From contig CM035353.1 in the NCBI GenBank assembly GCA_020137815.1, positions 2,046,001 through 2,110,000 on the forward strand: a stretch of 64,000 bases of DNA. The letters are read 5' to 3'. Below are positions 1,867-63,381 of this stretch, in pieces (positions within the stretch are counted from its first letter, which is position 1; the number at the start of each line of letters is the position of its first letter). The position numbers were made by a program, and so were the translations under genes. This DNA is from Hormiphora californensis. Taxonomy: Eukaryota; Animalia; Ctenophora. The notes beneath the pieces are model-generated. The model ran no database searches. It saw nothing but the letters and a program-made list of their open reading frames with translations, and was not told the origin of the DNA.

Positions 1867-4800
1867 TCACGGCACACGATCCTCTTTTGTTGCATTGTCT
1901 GTAGTTATCGTGATTTCTCCCTGTTGTGGCTCAAACTTCACTGCCGCAGCATTGGCAATGACCTTAGTTCGGTGAAGTGAGTCATCATCACTAACTTCGG
2001 AGGATGAGGAGCATGAGGATCCATTACTTCTGAACTTGTAGTTTTCCAAGGGGTCTACTTTTACACCTGAAATAGAGCTGTTTAGGGGGCGATGTAAACT
2101 AAAGGATCCTCCATAGCAATTGTTTTGTTTTGATAATAGCAGTTTATAGGGCTGCTCTGTGATTCACAATCACATGGATCAGCGCATGGTTTATATCCCC
2201 CTATATCAGTACCTCGCTCTTGTAGTGGGTGGTGTTAGTAACACTGTTACTAAGGGGGGGGGTGTACTAGTGGAGGGGAGGGGTGTTGTACCTCGCTCAT
2301 GTAGTGGGTGGTGTTACTAAGGGGAGGGGGGGGGGGTGTACTAGTGGAGGGGTGATGTACCTCGCTGATGTAGTGGGTGGTGTTAGTAACTCTGTTACTA
2401 AGGGGGGGGGGGGGGGGTGTACTAGTGGAGGGGTGATGTACATACCTCGCTGTTGTAGTGGGGGTGTTACTAAGAGGGGGGGGGGGGGTGTACTAGTGGA
2501 GGGGAGGGGTGATGTACCTCGCTCTTGTAGTGGGTGGTGTTACTAAGGGGGGGGGGGTGTACTAGTGGAGGGGTGATGTACATACCTCGCTGTTGTAGTG
2601 GGGGTGTTACTAAGAGGTTGGATCCATCGCATCCTATTCTCGCTCCGCGAATAATAGGATGCCGGCCCGTTGAGAGCAAGAACTCACGTGCGCGCGATAT
2701 AAAGCACGTTTTCAGCAGATCGCGCGTGATAGACCGTTTTTGGAGACCTTTTTAGCTGACCTAGCACTACTCAAAGGTCAATTATGGCCTCATTTCGCAT
2801 CGTGATGAATCGGCGGGTATTTTCCCATACTCACAAGGCCATGACGATTCACCCAGTACCCGCAGATTGTCTCAGGACCGAGTAGGAGCTTGCAGCCAGG
2901 TCTTTAAAGAATTGCTCATGTTTAGCGTCAATTTTAACCCACTATTCCTCAAATGCTGATACTCGCGGGTATTTTCCGTAAAACTAGAGACAATTAGCTG
3001 CCAGGAGCAACAAACGAGATGCAAATCGGTTCAGTAGTTCCTTGCAGCCAGGTCTTTGAAAAAGTTTGCTCTAAAATCAATAACGCGCCGGAGGCCTAGA
3101 TGTGAGATCGATCTCGGTCGCTGCGCGACCTCGATCTCACTCAGGCATCAATGTGGCCAAACTAAGAGGGGGGGGGGGGGTGTACTAGTGGAGGGGAGAG
3201 GTGATGTACCTCGCTCATGTAGTGGGTGGTGGGTGGGGGGGGGGGGGGGTGTACTAGTGGAGGGGTGATGTACCTCGCTGATGTAGGAAGTCAGTAAGGA
3301 ATGTGACTCCAATGGCAACGGCAAAGTGAAGGAGCATTATCGTTAGTCGGAAAGGGAAGTTTTGGAATCCTATAGCTCCTACACCTTCTCCCTCCTGAAA
3401 TATAGGTGATCATGTTAGTTGTAGAAATATGTGGGGGGGGGGGCAGAAAAGCCAGGCCATGAAGCCAGATTCAACCCAGATTTCAGGGTAGGTTTGACTT
3501 TTTGGCCTTGCCCTCCCCCCAATATAAGAATGCAGCTGTTTATAATATCAGCCCTACAGCTCTACTTATACCATATATTTGGTAACCTAGCTGCTAGCTG
3601 AACCTACCACGTAACCAGGGAAACGGAGAATTGCTTCAAAACCGAGAACTGGCTCCCCTGAAAGGACCCGGAGTAGTAGTGCCAAGGAGAACCCAGAGAC
3701 CATTCCGTATCTGTTGACATACTTGCTGCCGTATAGAACGAGCACCAAGTGAGGGAAGAGTAGCACGTAGACAAGGTCACTGAAACAATGGGGTGGTGTT
3801 ACTAGGGTGGTGTTACTAGGGGACGTTACTAGGGGTTGTTGCTAGGGGGTGTTGCTAGGGGGTGTTACTAGGGGGGATGGTGTTACTAGGAGGGGGTGGT
3901 GTTACAAAGGGGGGGGTGGTGTTACTAGGAGGGGGGTGGTGTTACTAGGAGGGGGGTGTTGCTAGGGGGTGGTGTTGCTAGGAGGGGTGGTGTTACTATA
4001 GCACTCAGTTACACACACTCAAACGGGGTATGTGCCGCCAGACATAGTCAATATCAGACATAGTCAATATATTGACAGGTTATGATAGTTAGGATGGCAA
4101 TTTCTAGGCAAGATTTGATGGTTTATACCTGCAAATGACGTATAGCCCGTAAACAGATTTTACAGTTATGGCGATTACCATGGCAATAAGTGTGTTACAT
4201 ACGATTGTCACCCTTAACACCCACACTAACACTCTGAAAAGTTAATAATTAATTAATTAATTAACTATAATTAGTTATAATAATAATTAGTTATTGATTT
4301 GAAATAAACTTTAAATTTTAGAACTTTTACTTCAGAACTGTAGTTAGAACCGCAGCAACAATAAAATGACGGCCATGTAGCAACTATATATGATATAGGC
4401 TACAGTCGGATCCCGATTTACCGGCCCCCCAATTTACCGGAAGGATGAAATTCCTCCGATAAAGGAAATTAACGGTATTAGACCCCGATATACAGGGCAC
4501 ACTTTCCCTAACCATCCCTGTAAATTGGGGTACTACAATGAAGAAAGTTATTACTTACTTATCAGAGGCATGAGGGCTAAGGACTTTCTGGTAGACATTT
4601 CGTGTGAACATGGAGCTAACACCAAGTACAGAACTGTCTGTTGAACTCATCACTGCCGCAGACACCGCTCCAAGACCTGATGGGAGGGGGTTGTGGAGGT
4701 ACACAACTGATGGGGGTGCCACTTTTTAGGGGATCACGGGCGGGGAAAATATATTTGAATTCTTCTTACCGATGAAGGAGACAACTGGAGGACACAGTTT

Positions 4801-7800
4801 ACTAAGGCACAGTGGAACAGCTAGTTTGTAAGCTCCTTCCTCTAGGTTAGCTCCGTTAGCAGTCACCCAGTCCGTGTTGATAGTGATAACTCCCATGATA
4901 ACAGGGGGTATGGCAGCCAGGAAACACCCAACACCAGCACAATAGGATAGAACACGGGCTACCTATAGAAGGGGGAGGGGTTACCATGGTAACTAGGATT
5001 ATCTAGGTGAGTGTGATAGTGATAACTCCCATGATAACAGGGGGTATGGCAGCCAGGAAACACCCAACACCAGCACAATAGGATAGAACACGGGCTACCT
5101 ATAGAAGGGGGGGGGGGTTACCATGGTAACTAGGATTATCTAGGTGAGTGTGATAGTGATAACTCCCATGATAACAGGGGGTATGGCAGCCAGGAAACAC
5201 CCGACACCAGCACAATAGGATAGAACACGGGCTACCTATAGAAGGGGGAGGGGTTACCATGGTAACTAGGATTATCTAGGTGAGTGTGATAGTGATAACT
5301 CCCATGATAACAGGGGGTATGGCAGCCAGGAAACACCCAACACCAGCACAATAGGATAGAACACGGGCTACCTATAGAAGGGGGAGGGGTTACCATGGTA
5401 ACTAGGATTATCTAGGTGAGTGTGATAGTGATAACTCCCATGATAACAGGGGGTATGGCAGCCAGGAAACACCCAACACCAGCACAATAGGATAGAACAC
5501 GGGCTACCTATAGAAGGGGGAGGGGTTACCATGGTAACTAGGATTATCTAGGTGAGTGGGATAGTGATAACTCCCATGATAACAGGGGGTATGGCAGCCA
5601 GGAAACACCCGACACCAGCACAATAGGATAGAACACGGGCTACCTATAGAAGGGGGAGGGGTTACCATGGTAACTAGGATTATCTAGGTGAGTGTGATAG
5701 TGATAACTCCCATGATAACAGGGGCCGGTATGGCAGCCAGGAAACACCCAACACCAGCACAATAGGATAGAACACGGGCTACATATAGAAGGGGGAGGGG
5801 TTACCATGGTAACTAGGATTATCTAGGTGAGTGTGATAGTGATAACTCCCATATGATAGAAGGGGGAAGAGTGGGTTATATATAATCCATATTATATAGT
5901 GGTCTTATTATCATGGGGGAAGGGCCGTGTATTTTACCTACAATCCATTACTATACCTGTGGTGTTTTTGATGACAGGACACGCTGGAAATACGCCTGCC
6001 AGGGGATGCCGCCACAGATCATCATAATAAGACCATCAACCCACAGAGAGGGGTATTCTATCTCACCCAGTACGCTCTTTGTCTTGTTTACCAGGACATC
6101 ATTTTCAAGGATCGTGAAGTTCACTGTCTCCTAATTAGATGGGGGAGGGGGGTAAATTATAGCAATTGGGTGTAGTACCATGGTTGTTTGAAGGGAAAAA
6201 TTCTTGACAAGTCTGGGTAACCCATAACCGCAACCGTCTTCATCCAATGTTACCCTGGTACAATATGGTTTACTTCTCATAGTCTACCGAGTCAGGAAAT
6301 ACTGGTCCCTGATTGGCTGATAACCAGTCACGTGATCTAAATAACGAGTTCTGATTGGTTGTTTACTTAATTCGGTCGGTTCCTGCCTACTATACTGACC
6401 TGGAGGGGAGATGTCACGTTCTCATTGGTTATCATGAACGGTAGAGCCAGGATGAGTCCGACAAAGATGGAGATTAGTTGGAAAACATCCGTAAAGGCAA
6501 CAGAGTAAAGACCTGAAGAAAGATAATACCGTATATCATTATTTTTATCAACGTCTAGTTTTCTAAAATATTGACCGATTATCCTCCTCTTCTCTCCTTT
6601 TACCCCTCGCCTCTCTCGTTCTCACTCTCCATCTCGCCCTCTCTCTCCCCAGTCCCCGTTCCCATCTCCTCCTCAGTCTCTCTATGTTATAAATCTCTCC
6701 CTCAAGCTCACCCAGTCTCCCTTCCCATCTCCGCCTCTCTACATGTTAACACACACCTCTCTTCACCCAGCTTTAACATACCTCCAAAAAGGGTGTAGAC
6801 CATAGCAAACATGGCGGATACTATGATCGACGTATTCTCACTGATCAGACCCTGACAAATGACCTGGAGGGAGGAGCCCAGGGCAGCAAGGATGGCAGCA
6901 GACCAGAGGATCTCTCCGGAGAAGGCGGGGATGTACAGCAGAGATCCCAACTTTCTTCCGTATTTCACCTGATAAATATGATGTTGGGTAAGAGAGCTTT
7001 CGAGAGGGAGTAAACTGTAAAGGATGTTGAATTTTTGGTTGGTAAAGAAAGACACTTGTTATATGACTCTGAGAACATAAAATTTATTCTTAGTATAGAG
7101 TCAGTAAATAGGTTAAATGATAATATGTTCTAACCTTCCTTTACATTTGTAAAAGTGTGGGTGAGACATACCTGGAAGGGGTCGAGCATGGTGATGAATT
7201 TCATGGCTCGCATCTTCTTGGCAAAGAACAGCCCACCAATACAGAGAGATGTTGCGAAACAGAACGGGGCTTGACAGTTCAGCTGCAGGAGATTGCATTA
7301 TAAATTAGCTAAAAGTATCACAAAATTATCCAGCTAGATAACATGAGTCTCAAATGATAAAGCAGTATTCTGGAATTTCAACTTACAATTCCACCGCTAA
7401 TGACGGCTTCTGCGGCACCGTTAATGTAGCCTCCCCCTACCCATGTTGCCGTCATTGTAAAGATTCCAACCGCGTAGTTAATGTTCCTTCCTGTGTGGAA
7501 ATCGGACTAGGTCATTCCGTGGGGGGAGGGGGGGGGGGGTGTTTTCAATGTTCATTCCTAACAACACCTATACAGCTAGCCTCTATGATTGTACTAGCTC
7601 TCTATTATCTTCCTACAGTACTCACCAGCTAGCATCAGATCCTCGGTATTAGTTAGTCCAGATTCACCGTTATCTGCAGGCTGCTGTTTCTTCTTCCCAT
7701 TCATCATCTCCATTAATCTGAAACGAGGGCGCCTATCAACACAAGCTGTAAAATGATTTTGTCAAAGGGGGTGTTAGCTGTGATATATGTGGTGTATAGG

Positions 7801-9113
7801 TAATAGTTTTTGGAGATCTATTTTAATTGGCGAGGGGGTTAGAAGTAGGTTTGTAAATGTAAAAACACCGAAGTATTAAAAACTTAAAATAGTTGCGGGT
7901 CCTCAGTGCAGTAGAGATGGTGAAATTGTGTCCGGATAATGTATGAATTCAGTGTGTGATGTTTTTGAGATCATTATATGAGCTGGCTAAAGGAAAACCC
8001 TATCAAAAATAGCTTTTTTGTGAAATGAGACTTAAATTATTGATTGGGTTTCCATTTAGGGAGAGAGAAAAGGCAAGAGAATTTTGATCAGAGTAACATG
8101 TGAGGTTTTATAGTTTCGTCTGATATATATATTAGTGAGAGCGGCTAGATCATGTTCCCGCCGAAAGTCGCCTGATTTGCGCATTGTCATAGCTACTTCA
8201 TATCTTAAATCAAATGGTCCGTAAGTTTCTGATAGATCTCATCAAGAAATCTACGAAAATGATAAAGAACATATTATTTGAATGCTCGAACTGAAGGGAG
8301 CTATGACGGGAGCAACTGCAGAGCTGCTGATCTAACCGCCCCTACTATATATATAGTGTGAGGGGTGTGTGTGTGATGGGTGTGTGTGATGGGTGTGTGT
8401 GAGGGGTGTGTGTGTGTGATGGGAGGGTTTATTGCACGTATAAGTAGACGTTCACCTCACTGTAATTTACTACAGTTGAAGAGTTGCCGGGAACGTTGCT
8501 GGACCAGATTCCGAACATTCCGACTGAGCTGCAGAGATAATGTACTACCACCTGGGTATAGTCGCGGGAAATGTTGTTGACACACACAGACACACACACA
8601 GACATGAAAACTGTACTGACACACACACAGCTACACACACACTTACACACAGATATATGAAAACTGTACTCGAGAACTGACGAAAACTGTACTGGCAAAC
8701 TGACAAAAACTGACATTGATCAGAAACAAACAGAACAACAAATATTATATAATTTTTTGGATGAGTTGGACAAGTACCTACAGACCAGGAACCGACCGAA
8801 TCAGGAAATACTGGTACCTGATTGGCTGATAACCAGTCACGTGACCTAAATAGCGAGCTCTGATTGGTTGTTTACTTGGTTCGGTCGGTTCCTGCTACAG
8901 ACTAACAACCGATGTGAAGCTTCAATTAACTTTATGAATTTTTGTGATAAATATGTGGTTAATATGGACAGCTCTAATCTATATATCAAGGACAGTCACG
9001 TACCGTTTAGCGAAAAGCCCAGCAAAAAGGATGAGGAAGTAGAAGAAGATCAGGCCTCCAATACCCACCCAATCAACCGCAGGTTTAACTTCATTATCCA
9101 TCACTCCGGTCAT
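1867..9113 (-). CDS. SLC5A7: High-affinity choline transporter-like sodium:solute symporter (SLC5A7/CHT1 family), 12 coding exons
   Basis: Manual splicing gives one in-frame chain of GT-AG exons: 9113-9004 ([36 protein letters not shown]), 7717-7625, 7492-7387 ([21 protein letters not shown]), 7282-7172 ([22 protein letters not shown]), 6968-6782, 6512-6400 ([12 protein letters not shown]), 6131-5957 ([14 protein letters not shown]), 4961-4770, 4675-4559 ([16 protein letters not shown]), 4233-4129, 3779-3608 ([10 protein letters not shown]), 3393-3274, then terminal exon 2066-1867 (stop). The motifs are hallmark CHT1 sequences. Exact exon count may be 13 including the terminal exon. Confidence 0.9.
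2209..3285 (-). repeat. Donor-anchored G/C-rich minisatellite in the last SLC5A7 intron
   Basis: Variable ~55-70-bp units, each re-creating the exon end and donor (...TACAxxAGCGAG|GTAC on minus). Interrupted by the insertion at 2618-3160. Confidence 0.8.
2618..3160. mobile_element. 543-bp insertion with 9-bp target-site duplication (MULE-like non-autonomous element)
   Basis: ACTAAGAGG is duplicated at 2609-2617 and 3161-3169 and splits a repeat unit seen intact at ~2461-2500. Ends are TTGG...CCAA with only a weak TIR. Confidence 0.65.
3790..3998. repeat. GGTGTTACTAGG-type minisatellite
   Basis: About 12 variable units in an SLC5A7 intron next to the acceptor at 3780. Confidence 0.85.
4876..5851 (-). 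repeat. 136-bp x ~7 tandem array of acceptor plus first 86 nt of an SLC5A7 exon
   Basis: Periodicity is about 136 bp (ttaccatggtaactagg at 4981, 5118, 5254, 5390, 5526...). Each unit carries CTATAG|GTAGCCCGTGTT... on minus; only the last copy continues into the true exon. Confidence 0.95.
8786..8894. mobile_element. 109-bp hAT-type MITE, family B (CAGGAACCGACCGAA TIR, 8-bp TSD)
   Basis: TSDs: CTACAGAC here, TTTTATAC at 22586-22694, TCAATTAC at 23660-23768 and CAAAATAA at ~28422-28534. Further copies at ~6285-6385, 13912-14009, 26451-26559, 32431-32540, ~32993-33087, 34365-34473, ~35275-35374 and 53103-53210. Confidence 0.9.
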
Positions 9114-9316
9114 TTTTCTTCAATCTTGCCCCGTTTTGCTAAACAAAATAGTACATGTAAAGTGTCAAACTAAATGTAAAGTAAATATAATAGTACAGTC
9201 GGACCCCGATTTAACGGGTCCGAATGTACACATTAGTGGAAAAGTTGACATAAATTTGGCGGTTACTGATTAGGTTTGGAGTAGAAACTATTTCAAAACA
9301 AGGTATGTACTACGCA

Positions 9317-9530
9317 CATTGGGGGTTGAGGGATAGCTCGTCTCCGGCTTCTGTGCTCCAAAAACGGGTGTGACAGGATTCCACTGCATGGGGTGATCTG
9401 TGACTTGGATTTCTTTTCAAGCTGAATCTAAAGAAATCCAAGTCACAGATCACCCAATGCAGTGGAACCCTGTCACACCCGTTTTTGGAGCACAGAAGCC
9501 GGAGACGAGCTAACCCTCAACCCCCCATGT
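9317..9530. mobile_element. Palindromic MITE with 15-bp flanking direct repeat
   Basis: About 100-bp near-perfect arms around a ~12-bp loop; GGTATGTACTACGCA at 9302-9316 and 9531-9545. Confidence 0.8.
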
Positions 9531-10240
9531 GGTATGTACTACGCAGGTTTGCAGAATTTACTCTCCTGCAAAAGCTAGTACTGAAGAAGCTTGACTAGCT
9601 CGACGTCCCCTTTACAAATGTTAAGGAGCTAGTTAGAACAAGAATCTCCTGATGGTGAAACACAAACAGGTTTGTTCAGATTTATACCCCTCCTTTCCTG
9701 GTGTTGAAGCGGCGCGTGAGTCACGAGTTTCAAGTGTCACGTGTCTCATGTCTTAATTTGATAACTAAGCTCTGTACCCAAGTCACAGGAAAATTAGGCA
9801 CGCATTATCATAGGAGCTCAGTGCAATATGAGGACCCAAAGGAAGTGTAGGAAATTAAAAGGCCGTGGCAATTTAAGTTTTTAAAGGACTGGGTAACATA
9901 CCCGAGTTCTTTTTGTAAGTTGGTTTTTGAAGAACGTACTATTAATAGGGCAACCCTGCAGACTTGTTCAGACACTGTCTGATGCATCTCTCTTGAGTGC
10001 CACCCCAGCTCCTTCCCGTGAAACAGCACTCAGCAGTATGAATTCGAGGTCCTGCTATTCCTTTCAGTAAATTCAATCACTAATCCAATATAAATATAAC
10101 ACCCCCATCAGCAATTGAATCAAACTGTGCCCCACTACCATGTGTGATTTCAGATTCCCAGATTCACTGGAGCACCCTAATAAGATTATTATTCGTTTCA
10201 GAGGACTGTTTTTATCACGCCGCCTCTCTCTCTCTCTCTT

Positions 10241-10372
<132 letters not shown>

Positions 10373-11723
10373 CGGTCATTCGAAGTTCGACTTCCCACTT
10401 TAATAGGGCTCCGATAACAGTAACGCCGTGGTGGCTGCAACGAAATTATCGAACACGGCGTCAAACAATAACCATTGTGGAATCAATAGAATTACTTTCA
10501 AATATATATTGCGGATGCCGCGGTAACCTTGGTAACGACTATCGAAATTACCCCTACCTTGCAGGCACTCTAAAACTTGCCTTGTTCGACCCTCCCCGCG
10601 ATAAAATAAAATATAAAGGGTTCGAACAAAACAATCTAAAACGTGCTATACCGCAATATGCCTCAGGTACGAGGGTTAATTTCGATACCAAGAGCCAAGC
10701 CGGTCATTCGAATTGATCTGATTAATCAATAATCGGGTAAAATCATTGGCAATGACAATTTAGCTGTAGCAATGACTCATTGCTACAGCTAACGAGCACA
10801 CCAGAATTCAATTCATTGGGAGCCAACCCGGATATAACATTCCCCACCACAAACTTACCTACAGCTGCTTTTTCCTCCGTTCATTCTTGGCGTCCAACAT
10901 CATATTACTATGATTTATAGTTGGAAGGGTGTCAATAGTGCCTCCTGCCGGTATCATGCCCACCATCATCAGATCCTCATTTCATCCTTCCATTGCTATT
11001 ATGAGACCTGCAGAGGAAGAGGGGTAATTCTGTATAGAAACAAAATGATTATTCAAATGATAACGGACAATGTTTTTCATTGTCCGACAATTACAAATGG
11101 AGAACATTTACTGATCTTGTAGAAGAGCGCTTATAGGTACTCGTATCTTGTGAGAACTGAGAGTTCCAACTCCGCGAAATAGGTCCAGCACGATGCCTGC
11201 TACTGATAGATGTAAGTGTCAGTATCATTATAAATAAACTGTCTGACTTGGCATGATGTTCACAATTTTTTAGAAATTTATAAATTCTTGGGGTTTGTGG
11301 TTTGTGTGCAAATTAATTAAAGATACATTATATAATCAGAAAATATATAATCATTCACTGCACATCTCTATGCCAATCTCACGAGTCTTCTGTTTTGATT
11401 TTTCACACTGCCAGCTGTCTCCAATAAACTCTGTCTGGCGGCCTGATCTGAGCGCACTTGAGAATCAAAGACAGAGCACTCTGACCCACACAAATCATGT
11501 CACAGACACTCTGACCCACACAAATCATGTCACAGACACCCACACTCACACTCACACAGGCTAAAAAACACAGCTTGAATGTTCGTTAACTTCTTCTGTG
11601 TCCCATCGAATGTGACATTGCAGCATTTCTCTCCTCTCCATCCTTTGGAAATGGGCGATACCCCAGCTGTACTCCATTAATCTATACCGTGTGCAAATAT
11701 CAGCACCACACAGCTGCACTCCA

Positions 11724-23870
<12,147 letters not shown>

Positions 23871-24471
23871 GGTGTAGCTGCAACATAACATGATGGGTGG
23901 AGGCGGTGGTTAGGTGATTAACGGAGTGGTGAAGTGGTTACTGGAGGGTGAAGTGGCTACTGGATGGGGCGGGGGAGGAGGGGCGGATGGTTATTGAAGT
24001 GGTTAAGGGATGAGTGGTGAAGTGGTTAAGGGATGAGGGGTCGTGAAGTGGTTACGGTTATAAGAGGGAACATGAGGGGGAAATAAGACACACAATGTTG
24101 TGGTAAAAAACTGGGACAAAATTCAGAAATGGATATACACTCTCATTCGAATATACAATTATATATTGGGTCACGAACAATATACCCTCTTCTGGATCCC
24201 TTTCTTCCCCACCTTTTTATATAAATTCCTTCTTAAAGCGCCTCGATTTAAATGCTACAACAACTTAAAACTGAAAACAGTACATGACATTTTAACGGAA
24301 AGCTATGTTACATTTTCTAGGGTTAGCTTGCTGAGTTATAACACACAGCAAAGGGTTAACCACTCATCCAAATAGGGTCACAAACCACAAACAAACAAAC
24401 CTCAAACACAAACAAAAACAACCCCGAACCACTTTCACACAACCAACCCCATACTGACAACACACACGGTT

Positions 24472-47123
<22,652 letters not shown>

Positions 47124-47454
47124 CTTACTAAAGGTGGTAAGGTGTCAAGTCTTCTTAAATTTAACAAATCAAGGGGTGGGGTGTCAAATCTTACTAAATT
47201 TAAGAAATCTAGAAATTAGGTGCGGCGAGAAATATAATTTTACATATAATTTTGTCTGACAGGAGGGAGGAGGGGATTGAATTCCTAGAAAGATCGGGGT
47301 GCGGTTTTTGGGAAGAAAGATTTAACTTCATAACTTTTAAATAATGACTATTATATAGCGAGAGGGGTGATGCTACAAGGGAGTGGTTAACGATGGTCGG
47401 TAGTTTAGTAAAACATCACTTGAAACAGTAAATTTATCATAAATTGACATTTAA

Positions 47455-48886
47455 AGGTTGACAAGATACCTAAAACTTTTCGTATATCGTCTTATTTTGA
47501 TTTATCATTAGTTTTCAGCATTTTTTTAGATTTTTTTTGTCGGCTAGAAAAAAATTCGAAATAGGGGGTCTACCGATATTGTCAGCACTGGTTTTACTGG
47601 GCACACTCACTGCGTCTCGCAAATTGAAATTCACGTTTCCGGTTCCTCAAAAGATAGCTACTTGATCTTGGTTGCGTTGGATTGGTCTCAATAAGACCTT
47701 TCCAACGCTACCAAAACGGTTTCTGTATCTCATCAGGAACCGGAGATATTACGGTATCAATTTTTAAATTGCGCCTCTCGTTTATCAGTAGAACCCATAT
47801 TTTGCACATATTTCTAGCCGACAAAGAATTCTGAAAAAATGCTGAAAATTAATGATAAATCAAAATAAGACGATATATCGTCTATATACAGTCGGACCCC
47901 GATTTACCGGGATCCTCGGGGGAAGCCATTTTGCCCGGTAAATCGGGGTGCCCGGTATATCGGGGTAGAACATATTTGACCCATAAATCCTACTTTTGTC
48001 CAAAATTCTATACCAAGACACCTCTAACTGTATAGTATACATTTATTGATGACAATATGATCATTGCTTCTGTCATTAGAAATAGAAAATTTAAAAAATT
48101 CAAAAAAAATTGTAAGGTAAACCACCCCGACCGAGTCCGAATCGTGTTTCGAATCGGTGCATCTTATCGCATGTCCTGCCACTAATTAGATGGTTCGAAA
48201 CGAACCGATACGTGATACCATGCCGAATCTGGGCACCTTAAGCGGGGTGAGGAAGTATCAAAGTTTCAAAATAACTTTTTCTCTGAAAATTTACGGGGAG
48301 CATCGATCAAAGAATTGACAATGATTCTGTAAAATTTTGCAAAAAAAAGTTTTGAAATTTTTCTAAGGTATACCAGCCACGTTCGAATCGTGTTTCGAAT
48401 CGGTGCATCTTATCACATGCCCTGCCGCTAATTAGACGGTTCGAAACGAACCGATACGTGATACCATGCCGAATCTGGGCACCCTAAGCGGGGTGAGGAA
48501 GTATCAAAATTTCAAAATAACTTTTTCCCTGAAAATTCACGGGGAGCATCGATCAAAGCAGTGACAATCATTCTGTAAAATTTTGCAAAAAAAAGTTATG
48601 AAATTTTTCTAAGGTATACCAGCCACGTTCGAATCGTGTTTCGAATCGGTGCATCTTATCACGTGTCCTGCCGCTAATTAGACGGTTCGAAACGAACCGA
48701 TACGTGATCCCCATTAGACCTAGCGAATTGCAAATGCAAGTTTACCAACCGGCCAAACTTCAAAAATTTTCCAAAAAAAATCGGGGGAAAGAAATCCTCC
48801 CGGTAAATCGGGGTTCCGGTAAATCGGGGCCCGGTAAATCGGGGTCCGACTGTATATACGAAAAGTTTTAGGTATCTTGTCAACCT
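47455..48886. mobile_element. Kolobok-like TTAA element with nested long family-A element (47889-48852)
   Basis: TTAA|AGGTTGACAAGATACC...GGTATCTTGTCAACCT|TTAA. The right TIR is split by the TA-flanked CAGTCGGACCCC element, which itself has a ~247-bp internal tandem repeat. Confidence 0.8.
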
Positions 48887-49041
48887 TTAACAACATACTA
48901 CTTATCATACAAATAAACATCATTCCGCCTGAATCTGTTTATACCCAGCAGAATCAATTTCATTAGCATCTTAGAAAAAAACGACATAGCAAAGAGTTAC
49001 ATATATAATCACCCAGAAGTCAGTTCTCATTGGTCAACGAC

Positions 49042-51291
49042 TTACAAAACTTTAGACAAAAACCGAAGCTCCACCTCAAGTTTCTCCGCCGTTTCATATT
49101 GTCCACTTTCAATAGCCGTTTTGATATCTCCCCGCAGCTTCTCGACTTTTTTCTCCACATCAGCCAACTCAATTCCAACCTCCTTATTAACTTCACGACA
49201 CTGCTTCTCCAGTTCCTCGCCCATGTTAACAGTAACACCCCTACCTCTAACGAGTAGAAGGTAATTGTACATGTAGGCAATATCATAATTTAGAAGCGTG
49301 CTGGTGACCCCTGTACAACTGCCACTTAGGCCCTCCACCGCAGTTTGCAGATGGGCTACTATCTTGGAGATACATTCACGGTCAAAGCCTGCTTGTTTCT
49401 CCCCTGCTTCCAAACGAACCCGTTTCAGCACCATTTGAACCCGATTTATCTCGCTGTCGAGCTCACGTTTCTCATTCTTTAACTCAGATTTCCGATCAGC
49501 TAACGATTTCACCTTGGCCGCAAGTTCACCCTCTTCGCGTACAATTCTTGCAGCTTCTGTGTACTGTTGCCGCTCAACTGCCTCATGTTTGAGGGATGTG
49601 AGGGCTTTCAACTCACTCTCAGCTAGGACAACCTCATTTTCAGCTCGGACCACGGCACGAGTTGCAGCAAACTGAGCGGAGTTTTTATCCTCTAACTCCT
49701 TTTCTAACTCGGCTGTTTGTTGGAAGAGGGCGATTAGGGAGGCGGGTGCTGTTAGGGAATCATCAGGGAGTAGGGTGCTCTGAACCTCTCCAACAACGTG
49801 CTCCTCATGCCGTGAGATCGCCTCTACAACCGAACTCTGGAGATCTGAAAGTCGTTGGGTAACCGCACTTTCAGTATCTGTAATTTTGGCGATTTGCCCG
49901 GATAACGCTTCAAACTCCTTTCGCCTTTCTCCTATCCTATCTTCCTCGGCCTTGATGGACATTTCCTTGATGTGCAGCTTTTCACTGTCTCTCTTTATCT
50001 CCTCTGCTTTACGTGCAAGTTTTGTGTCATTGTCACCCTTCTCCACATTGAGTTTGTTTTTCTCCGCTAGAATTCGCCCTTCTTCTGCCCTGAGTTTAGT
50101 TAGCCGAGCCTCTAAACCCCCGATCTCTGTCCTAATACCCGTCAATAGTTCCTCTTGGTAGGAGAGTTGTGCTGTGAAATCAGTGTCAACTGCAGCCCTA
50201 TCCGTCGCTAATGCACCCTCCAACTTCTCCAAATATTCTCGATCAATAGAGATGTGTTTTGCTCGACACTCCAGGGCGTTACTGGCATTCTCCAGTTCCA
50301 ACCGCTGCTTTTCAACTCTACTTTTACACCGTATTTCAACCTTCTTGCTGACCCCCTTGAACCTACTCCCCATTTCGCTCAGCTCAACACAATGCGACTT
50401 CAGTGACTCAACATGGGATCTTCGAGTTGAGTTTAGCTGGCTCAAAATATCACGAGTATCTTTATCCTGCCGTGGTGTCTGGTACTGCAGTACACCCCCA
50501 CCAGAAGTCTCAGCGGCACGCTTTGCAGCAGTTTTAAGGGCCTCTGCATCCTCGTATCGATCCTCCTTGAGTGCAGTTTCTATTTTAACCTTGACCTCCA
50601 CCTCATTCCTTTCTTTCCGTTGCACCGCAAGGATTCTCTGTACTGCACGGAGAGAAGTGCACTTTAGCATACTCTGAAGGTTGTCCAGATCGCGTTCAGA
50701 GGCTGAACGCTCCGGTGCACTGGCAAGGGACTCTAACTGTGCTGAAAACTCATCCACCTCCCGTTCCAATCGACCGAAGTAGTCCTGGTCGGACGAGGTC
50801 GATGAAGAGCGTGGAGAATCTTCTAACGGTGGGGGTGATGTTGGGTGGTTTTGGAAGGATACTGTAGGAAGAGGTGGGATAGAGGACGGACTTGACTGTT
50901 TTTTCCCTTCTCTCGGTGGCGTCGAAGTTGATTTTCCTTGATTGAAATTGGTATTATTTTGGGAATGTTGCCAACTTTTAGGAAGTCCTCTTTGCTGTGG
51001 GGGTGAAATGTCCAAACTGCTGAACTGGGTAGGTGGCATATCTTCATCGTGTTCAAAACTCATAGCGGGAAGGGAAGCAGGAGGGAGAGAAGAAGGAGGT
51101 TTCATGACATCAGGAGAATCAAAGTTGTATGATGTCGAGTGGGGAACATAGGACCGTGTCCCACGACTAGAATGGCCGCCCGGAGCAGTGGAACTCATTG
51201 ATTGAGTCATCGAGAACTTAGCATCGGTTTTCCCAAATATCTGGAGGCCATCGAACATGGATCCTTTGGCACTTTTATTCATGTTGCTCAT
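49042..51291 (-). CDS. Intronless 749-aa protein: S/P-rich N-terminus, long coiled coil, three UVR (UvrB/C)-like motifs
   Basis: Uninterrupted 2.25-kb ORF with heptad-rich sequence; motifs IETALKEDRYEDAEALK, KHEAVERQQYTEAARIV and IKTAIESGQYETAEKLE. Confidence 0.85.
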   Translation of the reverse strand: MSNMNKSAKGSMFDGLQIFGKTDAKFSMTQSMSSTAPGGHSSRGTRSYVPHSTSYNFDSPDVMKPPSSLPPASLPAMSFEHDEDMPPTQFSSLDISPPQQRGLPKSWQHSQNNTNFNQGKSTSTPPREGKKQSSPSSIPPLPTVSFQNHPTSPPPLEDSPRSSSTSSDQDYFGRLEREVDEFSAQLESLASAPERSASERDLDNLQSMLKCTSLRAVQRILAVQRKERNEVEVKVKIETALKEDRYEDAEALKTAAKRAAETSGGGVLQYQTPRQDKDTRDILSQLNSTRRSHVESLKSHCVELSEMGSRFKGVSKKVEIRCKSRVEKQRLELENASNALECRAKHISIDREYLEKLEGALATDRAAVDTDFTAQLSYQEELLTGIRTEIGGLEARLTKLRAEEGRILAEKNKLNVEKGDNDTKLARKAEEIKRDSEKLHIKEMSIKAEEDRIGERRKEFEALSGQIAKITDTESAVTQRLSDLQSSVVEAISRHEEHVVGEVQSTLLPDDSLTAPASLIALFQQTAELEKELEDKNSAQFAATRAVVRAENEVVLAESELKALTSLKHEAVERQQYTEAARIVREEGELAAKVKSLADRKSELKNEKRELDSEINRVQMVLKRVRLEAGEKQAGFDRECISKIVAHLQTAVEGLSGSCTGVTSTLLNYDIAYMYNYLLLVRGRGVTVNMGEELEKQCREVNKEVGIELADVEKKVEKLRGDIKTAIESGQYETAEKLEVELRFLSKVL

Positions 51292-51774
51292 GATGTTGTT
51301 GTGAAGATTGTTTCCCTTCAGGTCATAGCGGCTAATTGGGGATAGGGGAAGTTAGTGGTACATGTTAATGGAGTATTATTTCAATATTATTTGAGAACTA
51401 TTGGAGATGTAAACCAAACTGGGGAGAATGATTGAATAGATTTCTTATCATACATAACTGACTTCAATTCATTTATTTTTTCTAATTTTTCGTCATAACT
51501 TAAATAAATTGTTCGTGGTCAAATATCGCGTTTCCTAACTAAATAATTATAGTGCAATCAATTCACATGACATTTGACAATGCAATCCATACATAATATA
51601 TTATATGTATACGCTGGTCGGGAAGATTTGTAAAAAATGTCACTCCGTAAAAAGATATACAATGTACTAGTCTACCATTCAGCCCATTGCTATTCACTAT
51701 CTTAGCATGCCCGATACGATCTAGGTAAACCAAACATTTTACTATAAAATAACTGTCTGATCCCACTCCATCGA

Positions 51775-53891
51775 CTATCCCGGTAGTTTTATCGAACTTT
51801 GTGCATTTTTCACGATCCACGGATGGGCAAGAATGTCTGACAGGGTTGGTCTGAGTTTAGCGTCGACCACCAAAATCTTGGATATCAGGTCGGCTGCTTC
51901 TCGATTCACATACTCAGGAATCTCGTACTAAAATGAGTGGAATGGGAGATAAAGAAAAGGAAATATTTTAATACAACGATGGTGATCTATCTAGGTCGAA
52001 ACTTAAAACCCCACACGCTCCTATCTTCCCGCTCCTACCTTGCATGTTTTGATGTTTTCTAGTGTCGCATGAGTAGATTCCAGCTCAAAGGGAGCCTTGC
52101 CGACCAGAAACTCGTAAACCAGAATTCCAACACACCAAATATCAACGAACTCGTCATACTGAGGGGGAGATATTATTCAAGAAAACACGGTGACGTTTGG
52201 GGCTGTGGCATTGCCACCACAGTTGAATTTAATTCGAATGGCTCATTTCCCCAATACAATAAGCATCCTCAATAAATAGTTTTACGTTTTAGTTGATTAA
52301 ATATAGAGATAGAGAGAGATAATACTGAATACTTAGTCAGTTATTTCTGCATCTTCACTAAATCTAGTTAAATGATAATCTCAGTCACTGACCCAAGGAG
52401 GTGATTACGTGGGAAATTAAATTAGTTTGGTGTATCAATTAGTATCAATTAGTATCAATTAGCATCAATTAGTATCAATTAGTGTTCACCTGCTGATTAT
52501 GCAGCATTTCTGGGGGTAGGTAATCGACTGTGCCACAAAGTGTTTTCCTTCGTGAGTTGGGGGAGTGAATGGCCCAACCAAAATCTCCCAATTTCAATAA
52601 CAGCTCATCGTTAGAACCTGCAGATTTTAATAAACCCTTCAATTCAGTTTGGAAGGCATTTAGCGAGAAGCCCGGGCTGGCAAACTCCCTCCAACATAGG
52701 GGATGGTGAATTGTACCTACCTAATTTATTGTAATAGCACAAGTTTACATAGATGTTTTAGTTCAAGCTGAGAGTTCTCAGCATCAAAGTTTAGTTACAG
52801 TAGCGCTCTCCCTTGAAATTCACTCTCACCTGGCATTGTGCCCAGAAAGATATTCTCAGGTTTAAATTCACTCTCACCTGGCATTGTGCCCAGAAAGATA
52901 TTTTCAGGTTTAATATCACGATGTAGTACGTTGTGACCGTGTGTGTAGACCAGCGCCTCAGCAAGTTGTTTTATCAATGTAGCGGCCAAGGAATCAGTGA
53001 ACCGTCCCGCTTTCTTTAGATGCTTGTAAATATCGCTCTCTTTCGCGTATTCCAACACGACGTATATTTTAGCTGAGTGAACGAGGGGTTTTACAAGGGA
53101 CTAGGAACCGACCGAAACAAGTAAACAACCAATCAGAACTCGTTATTTAGGTCACGTGACTGGTTATCAGCCAATCAGGGACCAGTATTTCCTGATTCGG
53201 TCGGTTCCTGGGACCATCATCATCATGCGATCATGTGGAGAATTGGTAAAAACCCAGAACATCAATCCCCCACTTACTCGCATCATGGAAATATCCATAT
53301 AACCGGATAATATTTTGATGCCGTAACCGCCACTGAATTTCCAGTTCTCTCCTCAGCTGCTGAAGTGCCTCGTTCTGCTCAACCTCCTCCTTGTCTAGAC
53401 ACTTGATGGCAACCACAAACTTACTCTTCTTCTCCCGTGCCAGGTACACCTTCCCCATTTTACCTTTACCCAACGGCTTACCTGTAGATAGCGGACAAGA
53501 GAAGTATGAGAGATCTGTTATTGAATCCCTATTTAAAGACTCGTTTTTGTGCGAGACGATGACCCTGCTGAGGATCTGATCTTCTACTGTGAAGAGAGTG
53601 AGAAGGCACAAAACCTGGCACATTAACATTCTGAAATTACTATAGTGGGAATTGGAAGTGGGTCTAGAATTCTTTGCGTAGAGTACATGTTGAGTTGGCC
53701 GTGTGACCAAAATCTTTATTATTATTATTATCATTATTGTTATTGCATGTACCTATATCAAAGTCATCTATACTCCACGATGGTAACTTGTTCTCTTTAT
53801 TTCCTGGGTTTCCTGCTGGTGCCTGAAACTGTACACTCTTTCCTGATTGATCACCTTCAGGTTTTTTAGCAGGTCCCTTTCCTTTCAGCAT
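51775..53891 (-). CDS. Aurora kinase, 6 coding exons
   Basis: Exons: 53891-53753 (...WSIDDFDIG), 53481-53278 ([26 protein letters not shown]...[25 protein letters not shown]), 53071-52878 (HRDIKPEN), 52617-52490 ([27 protein letters not shown]), 52158-52039 ([19 protein letters not shown]) and 51927-51775 (ILAHPWI...stop). Confidence 0.92.
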
Positions 53892-53928: not shown

Positions 53929-56900
53929 TAGATCAAAAAAACAAAAGAAATTTGTTTGGAACACCCGTGGCCTTTTTACGATACTTGGCGCTACGGGAAA
54001 CGCACCCATAATCTGAGCTACTAGGTATTGTTATGTCATCGATCTCTCTCCAAGTTCTCACACTTTTTCACTCTCCCTCTCTTTTACTTTTACTCCGACG
54101 AAGGGTGCATTTCCCGTAGCGCCAAGTATCGTAAAAAGGCCACGAGTGTTCCAAACAAATTTCTTTTGTTTTTTTGATCTAGTTTCTCAGGTTTTTTTGT
54201 ATACAGGTATCAAAATATGCAAATAACGATGCGAGATACGATGCGAGATACGACTTTTTGTCCGGGGGACGACCCCATATAAATCGATCATTCTGCGTCG
54301 AAATTTGTCCATAACGTTCTAGGACCAGCTAAAATGGAAATATTCAAAATACGCATTTAATCATGAATCTGCGCATAAATATGCAAATAACGGCTAAACG
54401 GTGCGAGATACGACTTTTTGTCCGGGGGACGACCCCCCATAAATCGACCATTCTGCGTCAAAATATGTCCATGAAAACTTTCTAGGACCAGCTGAAATGG
54501 AAATATCCAGAATATGCATTAAATCATGAATCTGTGCATAAATATGCAAATAACGGCTAAACGGTGCGAGATACGACTTTTTGTCCGGGGGACGACCCCC
54601 CATAAATCGACCATTCTGCGTCAAAATATGTCCATGAAAACTTTCTAGGACCAGCTGAAATGGAAATATCCAGAATATGCATTAAATCATGAATCTGTGC
54701 ATAAATATGCAAATAACGGCTAAACGGTGTGAGATACGACTTTTTGTCCGGGGGGCGACCCCCCATAAATCGACCATTCTGCGTCGAAATATATCCATGA
54801 AAACTTTCTAGGACCAGCTGAAATGGAAATATTCAAATATGCATTAAATCATGAATCTGCGCATAAATATGCAAATAACGGCTAAACGGTGCGAGATACG
54901 ACTTTTTGTCCGGGGGTTGACCCCCCATAAAGTGAGTATTCTGCGTCGAAATATGTCATTTGAAATGTCCTTACAACAGCCAATACCGAGATAATCATAA
55001 AATTATACATAAATTATGCATAATTAAGGGTACGCTAACCAAAAATTTTTTTCGAGTGCAGGGAAATCTCTCACCTTAGGGTTGTAGGCCATGCCAAGGA
55101 GACCTCAAATATGCAATTTGAGCTCTCAAGTCGAATTCATATTTTTGCTACAGCTGCTTGAAAAATGAACTGAAAATAAGTTTTTGGCATCTTAAAAATA
55201 CATTTGTAAAGATAGGATCATAAAAATTTGTGGATTTGAAGAGGACAAAGAGGTGAGTAGCCACAAAAAATTTTTTTGAAATCCGAGCTGATTTCCGGTC
55301 CTGAGATGGATTTCTTTTTTTTGACTTTAACGCCATATTTGGCCAAGTTCCGAAAATATGTGAAAGCTGTAAATTGGTCAAAAGTTGCGTCTAACGATTC
55401 TCTATATGGCCATAAATTTTGGGCGCGTCCTTATTTGAGATAAGCTGTACAGAGGTTTTTTTGTGAAAGCCGTCATTTCAGAAATAAATAAATTCCCTGT
55501 ATCTCAAAAACGACTGATCGTAGAGACCTGAGACTATGCTTAAACGATTCAGAAGGTCCGATTTTGGGGGGGTCTTCTGAGAGACATTTTGCTCCTACTT
55601 CAACCGTTTTTGCTGTAATTGCGAAAAACAAAAATCCATCTTCGCCATCGTGGATTTTTTGTGATTTTGTTTTTGGTGATTATAGGGACCCATATGGACC
55701 AAATAGTGAAGAAAGTAGCTTGTTACACATTTTTCCATAGTTTCGGTCCTTTCTTAGCTAAAATTCCCTAATTACAGGATATTGGATTTTAGCTTTTGCC
55801 CTTTTCATAGAATTTGTTTTTCGCAATTACAGCAAAAACGGTTGAAGTAAGAGCAAAATGTCTCTCAGAAGACCCCCCCAAAATCGGACCTTCTGAATCG
55901 TTTAAGCATAGTCTCAGGTCTCTACGATCAGTCGTTTTTGAGATACAGGGAATTTATTTATTTCTGAAATGACGGCTTTCACAAAAAAACCTCTGTACAG
56001 CTTATCTCAAATAAGGACACGCCCAAAATTTATGGCCACTTAGATAATCGTTAGACGCAACTTTTCACCAATTTACAGCTTTCACATGTTTTCGGAACTT
56101 TGCCAAATAGGGCGTTAAAGTGGAAAAAAAGAAATCCATCTCAGGACCGGAAATCAGCTCGGATTGCAAAAAAAATTTTTGTGGTTATTCACCTTCATGT
56201 CCTCTTCAAATCCCCAAATTTTCATGCTCCTATCTTTAAAATAATTTTTTTGAGATGCCAAAAACGTATTTACAGGACATTTTTTAAACAGCTGTAGCAA
56301 AAATATGAATTCGACTTAAGGGCTAAAATTGCATATTTGAGGTCTCCTTGGCATGGCCTACAACCCTACGGTGAGAGATTTCCCTGCACTCGAAAAAAAT
56401 TTTTGGTTAGCGTACCCTTAATGACTTCCCATGCTCAAATCAAAATTTTATATAGCCTACTACATGTAGAATATTCGATTTATGGGGGGTCGTCCCTGGG
56501 ACAAAAAGCTCTAAATCCAGCCGTTTTCGCTCAGTTTGGTCTGTAAAAAGGTCGTGCATATGTACGGAGTATAAATATGCAAATAGCGGCTAAACGGTGC
56601 GAGATACGACTTTTTGTCTGGGGGACGACCCCCCATAAATCGATCATTCTGCGTCGAAATATGACCATGAAAACTTTCTAGGACCAGCTGAAGTGGAAAT
56701 ATTCAGAATATGCATTAAATTATGAATCGGCGCATAAATATGCAAATTAAGGCTAAACGGTGCGAGATACGACTTTTTATCTAGGGGACGACCCCCCACA
56801 AATCGACTATTCTCCGTCCAATGCGACCAATGAAAAGCCGCTATCATTAGTAGAACCTGAGATATTCAGATATGCATATTGTCATAATTATGCGCATATA

Positions 56901-57550
56901 ACTCCTTAACGGTTCAAGTTAGAGAAAATTGTCCCGAGTAAGACCCCCCATAAATCGAATATTTTGCGTCGGTTAGAACCGTTCATTTTTCTCTAATATG
57001 AGTCATTACCGAGATATTCATAAATTTATACATAAATTATGCATAATTAATGACTTAATGATCTCCAATCAAGATGCCACATACTTTATGACACACAGAA
57101 TAACTAGAGTAACCTAAGTTTAAAATTTCAGGGCTCTAGCTTTAGCCGTTTTTCCAGGCGAATGTTTGCAAAATGGTGGTGCCTTGTATGTATGTATAGT
57201 GTCTACACAGGGTGTGTTTGGGACCCCCCTCGTAACTTTTGAACGAAACGACCGATCCACTTGAAATTTATATCACTAACAGTAATGGTAGAGGTACCTA
57301 TGACTACAAAATTTCAGCTCGCTAGCTTATCGGGAACATGGTCAAACAGGCGCTCAAAAAGGGCGTTTGTCGCATCCGTATGGTATACTGCACTGGCCCC
57401 CACTGGGGGGGGGGGGTAAATGAACTTCTCGCGCCGGATTTAATTGTTTCAGAGTCATGATTTGATATGACTGGGGATATTTTTAATGCTGGGGGCTGTG
57501 CCCCCAGACCCCCCTAAGGCCACGGGGCACTTGCCAGTGCAGTGATATAG
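53929..57550. mobile_element. Putative Helitron/Helentron-like element with 163-bp satellite array, interrupted by the Kolobok-like foldback
   Basis: 72-bp inverted repeat (53929-54000 / 54110-54181), 163-bp units at ~54213-54950 and ~56572-56975, and GC-rich hairpin-like sequence at ~57490-57545. Boundaries are approximate. Confidence 0.5.
55028..56417. mobile_element. Second copy of the 1.39-kb Kolobok-like foldback element
   Basis: TTAA-flanked, with the same TIRs and spacer as 14863-16254. An empty-site equivalent (GCATAATTAATGACTT) is seen at ~57041-57056. Confidence 0.85.
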
Positions 57551-57687: not shown

Positions 57688-58599
57688 TCAATCAATGTTG
57701 AGTGGTAGCTCATAGTAACTTGACACAGTTTGTCCCCTAGACCCGATCGGCTCTGCAGTCCAAACCACCTGAACACAATACCCTGCAGACTGGTTGTTTT
57801 GAACCACCCTGTATATCAGAACCACTTGTTCGAGGGGCCCCAGTTTCAGTGGCATCGGAAGGTGAGAAACAGGTCGGAGCACACAGTCACCCTCCTGTTT
57901 ACTCGGATAAACCTGGAGACTTTTGGCAGTAATTGGTAATTGGATTGTGTTGGTTATCATAATCTTTAGGAGGGTAGAGTCTGATGTATCCAAGTAGCTC
58001 CAATATACATTGATGGGATTAACCAACTTGATATCTACATAAACTTTAAACTCCATAGGGTTTTTAAGGTAGCTCTGAAGATTGCGACCCGTGGCGAAAC
58101 TCTCTAGTATGTTGTCGATGTTACCTTTCTGGTTTTGAATGCCCGTAAACAGGAGCTTTGCTCTTTTACTGGTGGGGGACAACCCCCCAAGACTTGTGCA
58201 CAGTGGAAAAAGGACATGACCCTCAGAGGTAATTTGCGGTTTAAAGTACTCATTGCTCACATGTTTTGGGTGGCTATTCTCAGCGGAGTAAAGCCGACAC
58301 TGATTCATACCATCAACGGGGAGGAGTTCCTCCGTTTTATCATCTTGCGAGCTGACCTCAACACCAATATTTAGCGACTGTAAATGTTCCTTCCAGTTGT
58401 CGTACAACGTGCTCCCTACCGATCCCTTGTATTTTACAATCAGATAGATGTAGAGATATTCCTGAATGAATGCCTGGTCACGAGACGTGCTGTTGGAAAT
58501 ATCGTATTTGTCGTGCAGACTCAGCGGCATAGATATGAAGTAGTTGTTTTCATCGGGCGGAGGTTTTAATCGACCGGATTCGTTCCGTCGACTCGACAT
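57688..58599 (-). CDS. TRAPPC14: TRAPPC14 (C7orf43/MAP11)-like protein, single ORF of about 303 aa
   Basis: Colinear similarity, recognised from memory of human TRAPPC14: RDQAFIQEYLYIYLIVK ~ RNHLYLGETVRFLLVLR; VLFPLCTSLGGLSPTSKRAKL ~ VIFPLTVSLDRLPPGTPKAKI; LPMPLKLGPLEQ; VVWTAEP...SYYELP. First ATG at 58599. Confidence 0.6.
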   Translation of the reverse strand: MSSRRNESGRLKPPPDENNYFISMPLSLHDKYDISNSTSRDQAFIQEYLYIYLIVKYKGSVGSTLYDNWKEHLQSLNIGVEVSSQDDKTEELLPVDGMNQCRLYSAENSHPKHVSNEYFKPQITSEGHVLFPLCTSLGGLSPTSKRAKLLFTGIQNQKGNIDNILESFATGRNLQSYLKNPMEFKVYVDIKLVNPINVYWSYLDTSDSTLLKIMITNTIQLPITAKSLQVYPSKQEGDCVLRPVSHLPMPLKLGPLEQVVLIYRVVQNNQSAGYCVQVVWTAEPIGSRGQTVSSYYELPLNID

Positions 58600-59336
58600 A
58601 ATTAGTGGTGACACATTGATTTAACAATTGAACCTAAAAAGAGTTTGATTATTAATATTTAATAGTTTGGTTGGGCAGTATCTGTTCGACCAATGCAATA
58701 GGTAAACGCCAAACGGCATAGGTAAATGACATACAGTCTTCTGTTCCAATGAGGCGGTCAAAAGATCCCATGTTACAACAGACGTGCCCTCGAAGTCGAA
58801 TAGAGCTAATTTTGTCTATTCTGTCCGATGCTTAATTGACCCATGCTGCACTTTGCAAAATGTGTGCGATGGCGCGTGGCGGACTGTAGCACAGGTCAAG
58901 TGGAATAATACAAAGTGCGATAATGCAAAGCTTTCCAACATTAAACTTCTGGGGCGGGCGGTCGGTCGGCGGAGCCCCTGCGGTGGGATGGAACAGCGGG
59001 GTCCATGGGCGGGTTTTAAGCGGTTAAACCCCCCTCAACCGGGTTCCACGGGCTGTTAACCCAGGTAGGGGTCGAAAGGGCAAAGAATCCAAGGCATTTT
59101 CACCACATGGCTGCTAGGTCCTTCGTTGGTCCTGAAATGGGGGTGCCTACGATCTGGGTGTTTGGTGGCATGTTTACAGGTGTGCACTGCCAAACAGTTT
59201 GATTCACTAAAATGGCTCTAACCGGCATACCACTCAACCGTTTTGGCTAATTCAAAGTTTGTGTGGTATGAAATGTCAAGGCCTAACCCCAACCCTAACC
59301 CTAACCCTGAAAAACCGTTTGTCAGCACTTACGGAA

Positions 59337-63311: not shown

Positions 63312-63381
63312 AAGTTTGCTACCCATTTTATGAGTTTTTGAAGTCGCTTCAAAAACTTTAAAAATATTGATAAATTTTAAT

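Follow-up and report, generated by a model that had tools for sequence, protein, structure and literature searches.

Mirage minisatellites are described from the amphioxus genes for Adh3, the globins BflGb6/BflGb9, troponin C, and PGBD5 (PMC3087553, PMC3902484) as tandem copies of an exon-intron boundary that lie in the adjacent intron, at either boundary, and their origin is called unclear (PMC3087553). Human variable number tandem repeats (VNTRs) that span a donor site are reported from F7 intron 7 (37 bp), CBS intron 13, IFI6 (6-16), LMNB2, and PDGF; for these, the most upstream donor was shown to be used (PMC1557585). In the model of Rogers, tandem duplication of an AG-GT-containing segment multiplies splice signals and yields a new intron inside an exon (PMC3265369). 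Here we describe 12 junction-spanning tandem duplications in a 64-kb window of the ctenophore Hormiphora californensis (contig CM035353.1, positions 2,046,001 to 2,110,000; "the window" is this whole stretch of 64,000 nucleotides). Their structure is already known as that of the mirage: the unit spans the boundary in 12 of 12, the copies lie in the adjacent intron, and terminal units differ from internal ones. New are the high measured density and an excess of synonymous differences in the intronic copies, which is a clue to their origin.

The amphioxus arrays resemble those of the window in unit size (10-160 bp against 29-141 bp here), in terminal copies that escape homogenization, and in a polymorphic marine invertebrate host. 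They differ in phylum, in that we could measure density (12 of 61 introns, with up to 35 units), and in that the available parts of PMC3087553 and PMC3902484 do not mention a synonymous bias. The human VNTRs share a true donor in the first unit followed by identical pseudo-donors; however, use of the most upstream donor was shown there and is deduced from the open reading frame (ORF) here, and the human cases are a few isolated donor-side loci, whereas in the window the arrays occupy 20% of the introns, 5 of the 12 being acceptor-side. In contrast to the Rogers model, existing introns are enlarged. A search of titles and the starts of abstracts returned no such repeats in ctenophores and no synonymous bias in mirages, the scope of that search excluding subscription journals, the alignments in the PMC3087553 supplement, and the original paper on Adh3.

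Gene models for the window were built by hand and comprise four multi-exon genes.

1867..9113, minus strand: SLC5A7-like choline transporter gene, 13 exons, hand model
11724..23870, minus strand: RNF41/NRDP1 gene, 10 exons, hand model with tested exons backed by Pfam
24472..47123, minus strand: XRN1 gene, 36 exons, hand model with tested exons backed by Pfam
51775..53891, minus strand: Aurora-like protein kinase gene, 6 exons, Pkinase by Pfam

In total they contain 65 exons, with a median length of 115 bp, and 61 GT-AG introns, with a median of 269 bp and a sum of 35,624 bp, in intron-rich DNA with zero Ns. The kinase is presumably of the Aurora-like family, and we take the 13-exon gene to be SLC5A7 from its translation; Pfam matched no family on two of its exons. 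Relatives of the RNF41 protein group with Bolinopsis and Mnemiopsis proteins; together with the match of the single-exon gene described below, this makes a ctenophore near Pleurobrachia the likely source by sequence.

Duplications were detected with Tandem Repeats Finder (TRF), an annotation-blind self-match scan, and a junction-probe scan. An earlier note on this DNA, made from the sequence alone, had listed 12 tandem duplications across splice sites; both scans recovered all of them, each across a real splice site, and three local shuffles gave 0 self-matches at equal score. The 12 duplications lie in 12 different introns (12/61, 20%), seven at donors and five at acceptors, and occur in all four genes. 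Units are 29-141 bp in 2-35 copies, and TRF unit sizes agree for the regular arrays.

2209..3286, minus strand: donor array at SLC5A7 exon 12, ~70-bp units in 8 copies, with 7 decoy donors and a ~550-bp insert inside
4878..5852, minus strand: acceptor minisatellite at SLC5A7 exon 8, 136 bp x7
11905..13338, minus strand: donor minisatellite at RNF41 exon 9, 41 bp x35 (38 exon + 3 intron bases)
23154..23380, minus strand: acceptor duplication at RNF41 exon 3, two 69-bp copies and part of a third
27287..27782, minus strand: donor minisatellite at XRN1 exon 30, 47 bp x~11, with 10 decoy donors
30783..31135, minus strand: nested acceptor duplications at XRN1 exon 25, with the intron tail in three different versions
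32943..33135, minus strand: acceptor duplication at XRN1 exon 20, 2 copies, with a truncated miniature inverted-repeat transposable element (MITE) between them
40512..41390, minus strand: donor minisatellite at XRN1 exon 12, 29 bp x30, with 29 decoy donors and 9 unit types
41626..41749, minus strand: donor duplication at XRN1 exon 11, 48 bp, in three increasingly degenerate copies
42074..42156, minus strand: donor duplication at XRN1 exon 10, 43 bp x2, the unit having only 3 intron bases
46445..46555, minus strand: acceptor triplication at XRN1 exon 3, 36 bp x3, whose upstream acceptors lead to a stop
52816..52913, minus strand: donor duplication at kinase exon 3, 48 bp x2, with an in-frame decoy (+16 amino acids) and one synonymous difference

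Each unit matches its own exon only, which bears out the note's view that the units are unrelated and the process positional, and rules out an origin from a repeat family. The coding exon stays whole in these arrays; at donors the first site is the one compatible with the ORF, at acceptors the last. Terminal units are unlike the homogenized internal ones, the last unit being unique in RNF41 exon 9, XRN1 exon 30, and XRN1 exon 12 and the first in SLC5A7 exon 8. SLC5A7 exon 12 is the most diverged of the arrays.

The intronic copies differ from their exons mostly at synonymous sites. Substitutions were counted once each, as distinct changes, over 423 exon-derived bp in the 12 arrays. The raw count over this length was 15 synonymous and 7 non-synonymous; four of these differences (1 synonymous, 3 non-synonymous) were artefacts of ungapped alignment over one in-frame 6-bp deletion and were dropped, leaving 14 synonymous and 4 non-synonymous, with at least one synonymous difference in 10 of the 12 arrays. 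The expected synonymous share is 0.24-0.31 if the copy alone mutates and 0.38-0.47 if the exon lineage adds silent changes, which is the stricter null. Under this stricter null the corrected 14:4 has P=0.0007-0.008 and the raw 15:7 has P=0.004-0.04. The six low-copy cases contribute 8 synonymous and 0 non-synonymous differences (P=0.0004-0.002).

The intron-derived parts of the same units provide an internal control. Both parts are measurable in 8 arrays; in these we found 12 substitutions and 7 indels in 230 bp of intron-derived sequence, and in the exon-derived sequence 1 non-synonymous change in ~200 sites and 9 synonymous changes in ~70-80 sites. The non-synonymous rate is thus 0.005 per site versus 0.052 per intron-derived bp (Fisher P~0.004), and at half the intron rate ~5 non-synonymous changes would be expected against the 1 observed (P~0.03). 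Two sites carry more versions than the two haplotypes of a diploid could supply: one Ala codon in the XRN1 exon 12 array is present in three synonymous versions, as is, in three versions, the intron tail of XRN1 exon 25.

Because sequence that has never been coding should not avoid amino-acid changes, the simplest reading of an exon-derived part that differs mostly at synonymous sites, beside an intron-derived part with ordinary substitutions and indels, is that the intronic copies would be young and derived from other functional alleles. It is likely, judging from sequence comparison, that they sample different exon alleles, which would indicate that homologs of a highly polymorphic genome exchange sequence. 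As a simple statistic applicable to any annotated genome, the synonymous signature separates birth in cis from exchange between alleles, and so makes the question of mirage origin directly testable.

Several observations weigh against allelic exchange. The multi-copy arrays alone give 6:4, for which the strict null is not rejected (P=0.13-0.31); the count without the two cases whose decoys are in frame is 10:4 (P=0.012-0.058). The variants of SLC5A7 exon 12 are only non-synonymous (2), XRN1 exon 3 has differences of neither kind, and one possibly non-synonymous change lies at the XRN1 exon 10 breakpoint, outside the counted stretch. The test was post hoc, on the same 12 arrays in which the pattern had first caught the eye, and the counts are small. 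The assembly is also imperfect: XRN1 exons 6, 8, and 32/33 contain 1-bp frame breaks (45377-45486, 44449-44700, 25743-26040), which are likely assembly indels.

These frame breaks bear on the chief danger to the allelic reading, namely that the low-copy cases are assembly chimeras, in which the two haplotypes of a very heterozygous individual were placed one after the other at the border between a conserved exon and a divergent intron. Such haplotype chaining would leave the same purely synonymous signature in two-copy cases; the silent-only signal is indeed strongest in the low-copy cases, and related genomes are highly heterozygous (PMC8527503). However, chaining of two haplotypes does not account for arrays of 7-35 units with interspersed recurring variants, for three different versions at XRN1 exon 11, XRN1 exon 25, and RNF41 exon 3, for the three codon versions at XRN1 exon 12, or for the MITE or insert inside two arrays. 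The window has no Ns, no wholly exonic duplications were found in it, and the amphioxus mirages are backed by two haplotypes and reverse-transcription PCR (PMC3087553). We hold a chimeric origin to be quite improbable.

On balance we lean towards the arrays being mirage-type minisatellites that are likely tolerated because only the outermost site would be used, and that likely arise or are refreshed by exchange between alleles. Duplications wholly within exons would be purged and those that straddle a junction would survive as intron. The copies would descend from other functional alleles. Indels and transposable elements would set the introns of different haplotypes apart and leave the exons as islands of homology. 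Repair or crossover that is misaligned close to where homology ends could set the exon edge of one allele beside that of another, and once two copies exist, unequal exchange could expand them to 7-35 units; exchange between alleles may occur at the birth of the copies or afterwards. A pleurobrachiid relative has ~3.2% heterozygosity of single-nucleotide polymorphisms plus indels, with many non-coding indels (PMC8527503), and amphioxus mirages differ in length among haplotypes (PMC3087553). More tentatively, and with somewhat less than even confidence, mirages in general could be a by-product of recombination or repair between hyperdiverse alleles, where exons offer the only dependable homology and exchange resolves at exon borders, so that about one fifth of the introns here would keep fossils of exon alleles as decoys. 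If true, this would explain the recurrence of mirages in polymorphic marine invertebrates, and would provide hundreds to thousands of natural tests of the choice among identical donors or acceptors in an early-branching animal with short introns.

The arrays stack decoy splice sites, as had been noted, and most decoys score equal to the true site in a matrix built from the window's 61 introns. In the RNF41 exon 9 array, which occupies 1,393 of the 1,427 bp of intron 9, 33 of 34 decoy donors are intact, and 5 of the 6 decoy acceptors of SLC5A7 exon 8 keep the dinucleotide, with 1 dead. In units with only 3 intron bases (XRN1 exon 10 and RNF41 exon 9), the working donor is a chimera of the intron start and exon-derived bases; that of XRN1 exon 10 scores 8.3 versus 5.0 for the second copy. 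By ORF logic, splicing at a decoy would shift the frame or meet a stop in 10 of 12 cases, and because of this the selective tolerance proposed in the earlier note holds up as part of the explanation. The decoys of the remaining two are in frame and free of stops: the kinase exon 3 donor and the upstream acceptor of RNF41 exon 3 (+23 amino acids), whose copy has three synonymous differences. We infer that the outermost site is used in these arrays. If a fifth of introns hold identical decoys and the transcripts are correct, site choice must favor the outermost site on both sides, including the skipping of up to five identical upstream acceptors, although with introns this short one would expect the nearest sites to pair. 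In ctenophore genomes, gene prediction and read mapping will be misled by arrays of this kind. In another RNF41 relative, we observed proteins of 320 and 317 amino acids that differ at the exon 9/10 junction by three residues (P0004 vs P0012; P0004/P0011 vs P0012/P0013), which suggests alternative site use at the same intron.

Extra array copies make up 5,146 of the 35,624 intron bp (14.4%), and repeats dispersed in the window make up at least 7,816 intron bp (21.9%, a lower bound). The claim that duplication is a major route of intron growth was overstated: arrays contribute 14% against the 22% or more of dispersed repeats, although 4 of the 13 introns longer than 900 bp are filled chiefly by them. 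Exon sequence was thought to be converted into intron; instead it is copied and the exon remains intact. A likeness to intron gain had also been drawn. No gain is shown, and both positions tested appear to be introns in relatives too: gene calls on relatives' genomic contigs extend to, then diverge at, the RNF41 intron 9 acceptor (P0002), and others diverge at the kinase intron 3 donor (P0017, P0020, P0023). Since these calls diverge at the same positions, the two introns, from a comparison covering 2 of the 12 array positions, look older than their arrays.

The divergence at these positions also bears on whether the arrays are intermediates of intron gain, as in the Rogers/Hellsten model, or alternative splice sites that are functional and kept under coding constraint. 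The two in-frame, stop-free decoys would fit, RNF41 exon 3 with its three synonymous differences in particular, as would an AG-GT proto-splice site within the SLC5A7 exon 8 units. Set against this are the frameshift or stop in the other 10, the greater apparent age of the two introns, and the relatives' RNF41 proteins, which hold a single copy of the exon 3 segment. An intron that starts like the next exon and ends like the previous one, the sign of gain, was not seen in the copies, which carry intron-derived sequence beside the splice site and whose intron starts match the intron, not the next exon. We give this explanation hardly any credence. An mRNA-templated origin was also rejected: 23 of 183 spliced-junction probes matched, and by eye each of these was taken for an AG-GT look-alike of a true junction or a decoy. 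No exon-exon joined copies were found among the 183 probes, in a probe test that was poorly designed. A first protein search with kinase exon 3 gave no match at E 1e-15, and a metagenome scan returned only 2 transcript-like contigs, from other species, and hence no genomic orthologs with introns.

We asked how far junctions are enriched for duplications. In an automated test, in which a straddling 16-mer is duplicated within 400 bp of the junction and intronic pseudo-junctions serve as the null, 13 of 122 junctions were positive versus 7.7 expected for all introns (P=0.043) and 5.2 expected for introns ≤450 bp (P=0.002). An event-based test compared the 12 straddling duplications with 7 or 10 hand-picked wholly intronic ones under 12 null settings, and expected 3.2-11.9 straddlers (P from 3.5e-6 to 0.57). 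Limiting introns to 300 bp and giving exon-anchored copies 2-fold detectability removes the significance (P=0.2-0.57). The enrichment is thus modest, about 2-fold, and can be explained away, which counts against allelic exchange as well; the junction-focused process of the earlier note was overstated, the roughly 2-fold excess standing and its significance vanishing under this most conservative null. The position of the junction within units gave no significant result (P=0.29), and is not relied on since XRN1 exon 30 was entered as 34/13 rather than ~26/21. No clusters of wholly exonic duplications were found in the self-match scan, and no duplicated 16-mers in a 2.25-kb single-exon gene; this absence is consistent with removal of such duplications by selection and speaks against an artefact that ignores position.

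The loss of significance and the 7-10 wholly intronic duplications fit duplication in cis without regard to position, by slippage or staggered-nick repair, followed by a selection filter. With exons of 115 bp and introns of 270 bp, junction-spanning copies would then simply be those that survive and can still be detected, and chance together with changes in the exon lineage would account for the silent excess. Units contain anything from 3 to ~90 intron bases, the junction having no fixed place in them, and the overhang past whole periods, an estimate of microhomology usable in the simplest cases only, is tiny: 2 bp for kinase exon 3 and 3 bp for XRN1 exon 3 (111 bp for 3 x 36). One duplication spans a coding edge that is not a splice site.

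11664..11755, minus strand: 47 bp x2 duplication across the RNF41 stop codon

However, duplication in cis predicts that about half of the differences are non-synonymous, and we see 4 of 18, and 0 of 8 in the low-copy cases, with non-synonymous sites depleted relative to the intron-derived parts of the same units. We therefore regard a purely cis origin as rather unlikely.

A 109-bp MITE, bounded by 15-bp terminal inverted repeats and flanked by 8-bp target duplications, is present in 12 of 61 introns.

8784-8894: 109-bp MITE copy
22583-22694: 109-bp MITE copy
23657-23768: 109-bp MITE copy
28419-28534: 109-bp MITE copy

Three copies have an exact 8-bp target duplication and a fourth was seen by eye; we take the element to be hAT-like. 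If it favors intron starts, its insertion or excision, followed by templated repair, could make the breaks that seed duplications. Six copies start 12-19 bp past a donor versus 1.2 expected within 20 bp (P=3e-4), and the truncated copy at XRN1 exon 20 lies exactly between the two array copies. The element may seed some events, but seeding by it as the explanation of the arrays is highly improbable, with this MITE in only 1 of the 12 array-bearing introns and the synonymous bias left unexplained.

Smaller repeats accompany the arrays. Beside the XRN1 exon 30 array is a second one that resembles the exon 30 donor, from which it may derive.

26861..27279, minus strand: secondary 25-bp array adjoining the XRN1 exon 30 array

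Small or degenerate donor-spanning duplications were also seen at RNF41 exon 7 (18632-18656), RNF41 exon 3 (23085-23131), RNF41 exon 8 (16532-16650), and XRN1 exon 7 (44906-44985), and are possibly older or minimal mirages. The degenerate copy of the RNF41 exon 8 donor and the 47-bp duplication of the RNF41 stop codon had been missed by the earlier note. A possible additional exon lies between RNF41 and SLC5A7 (10859-11010, minus strand), with good splice sites and a short resemblance to SLC5A7 exon 2.

Inside XRN1 intron 8 there is likely a nested gene on the opposite strand (~43060-44460, plus strand), with a signal-peptide-like start followed by an E/R-rich exon. It extends as far as XRN1 exon 8, up to that exon's end, through either overlap or misassembly; the donor modelled for this exon is atypical. 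The single-exon gene at 49042-51291 (minus strand) encodes a 749-amino-acid coiled-coil-like protein with a weak UVR motif below the Pfam cut-off. Its one match among 7,987 scored candidates is a Pleurobrachia bachei protein (89% identity), and because this was the sole match in the search, the protein is possibly lineage-specific. The window further contains a 310-amino-acid stop-to-stop ORF in a repeat-rich region (57688-58620, minus strand), a 163-bp satellite at three sites (19499-20096, 54213-54957, and 56571-56971), and, at its end, a duplication with a ~2.2-kb period (59150-63364).

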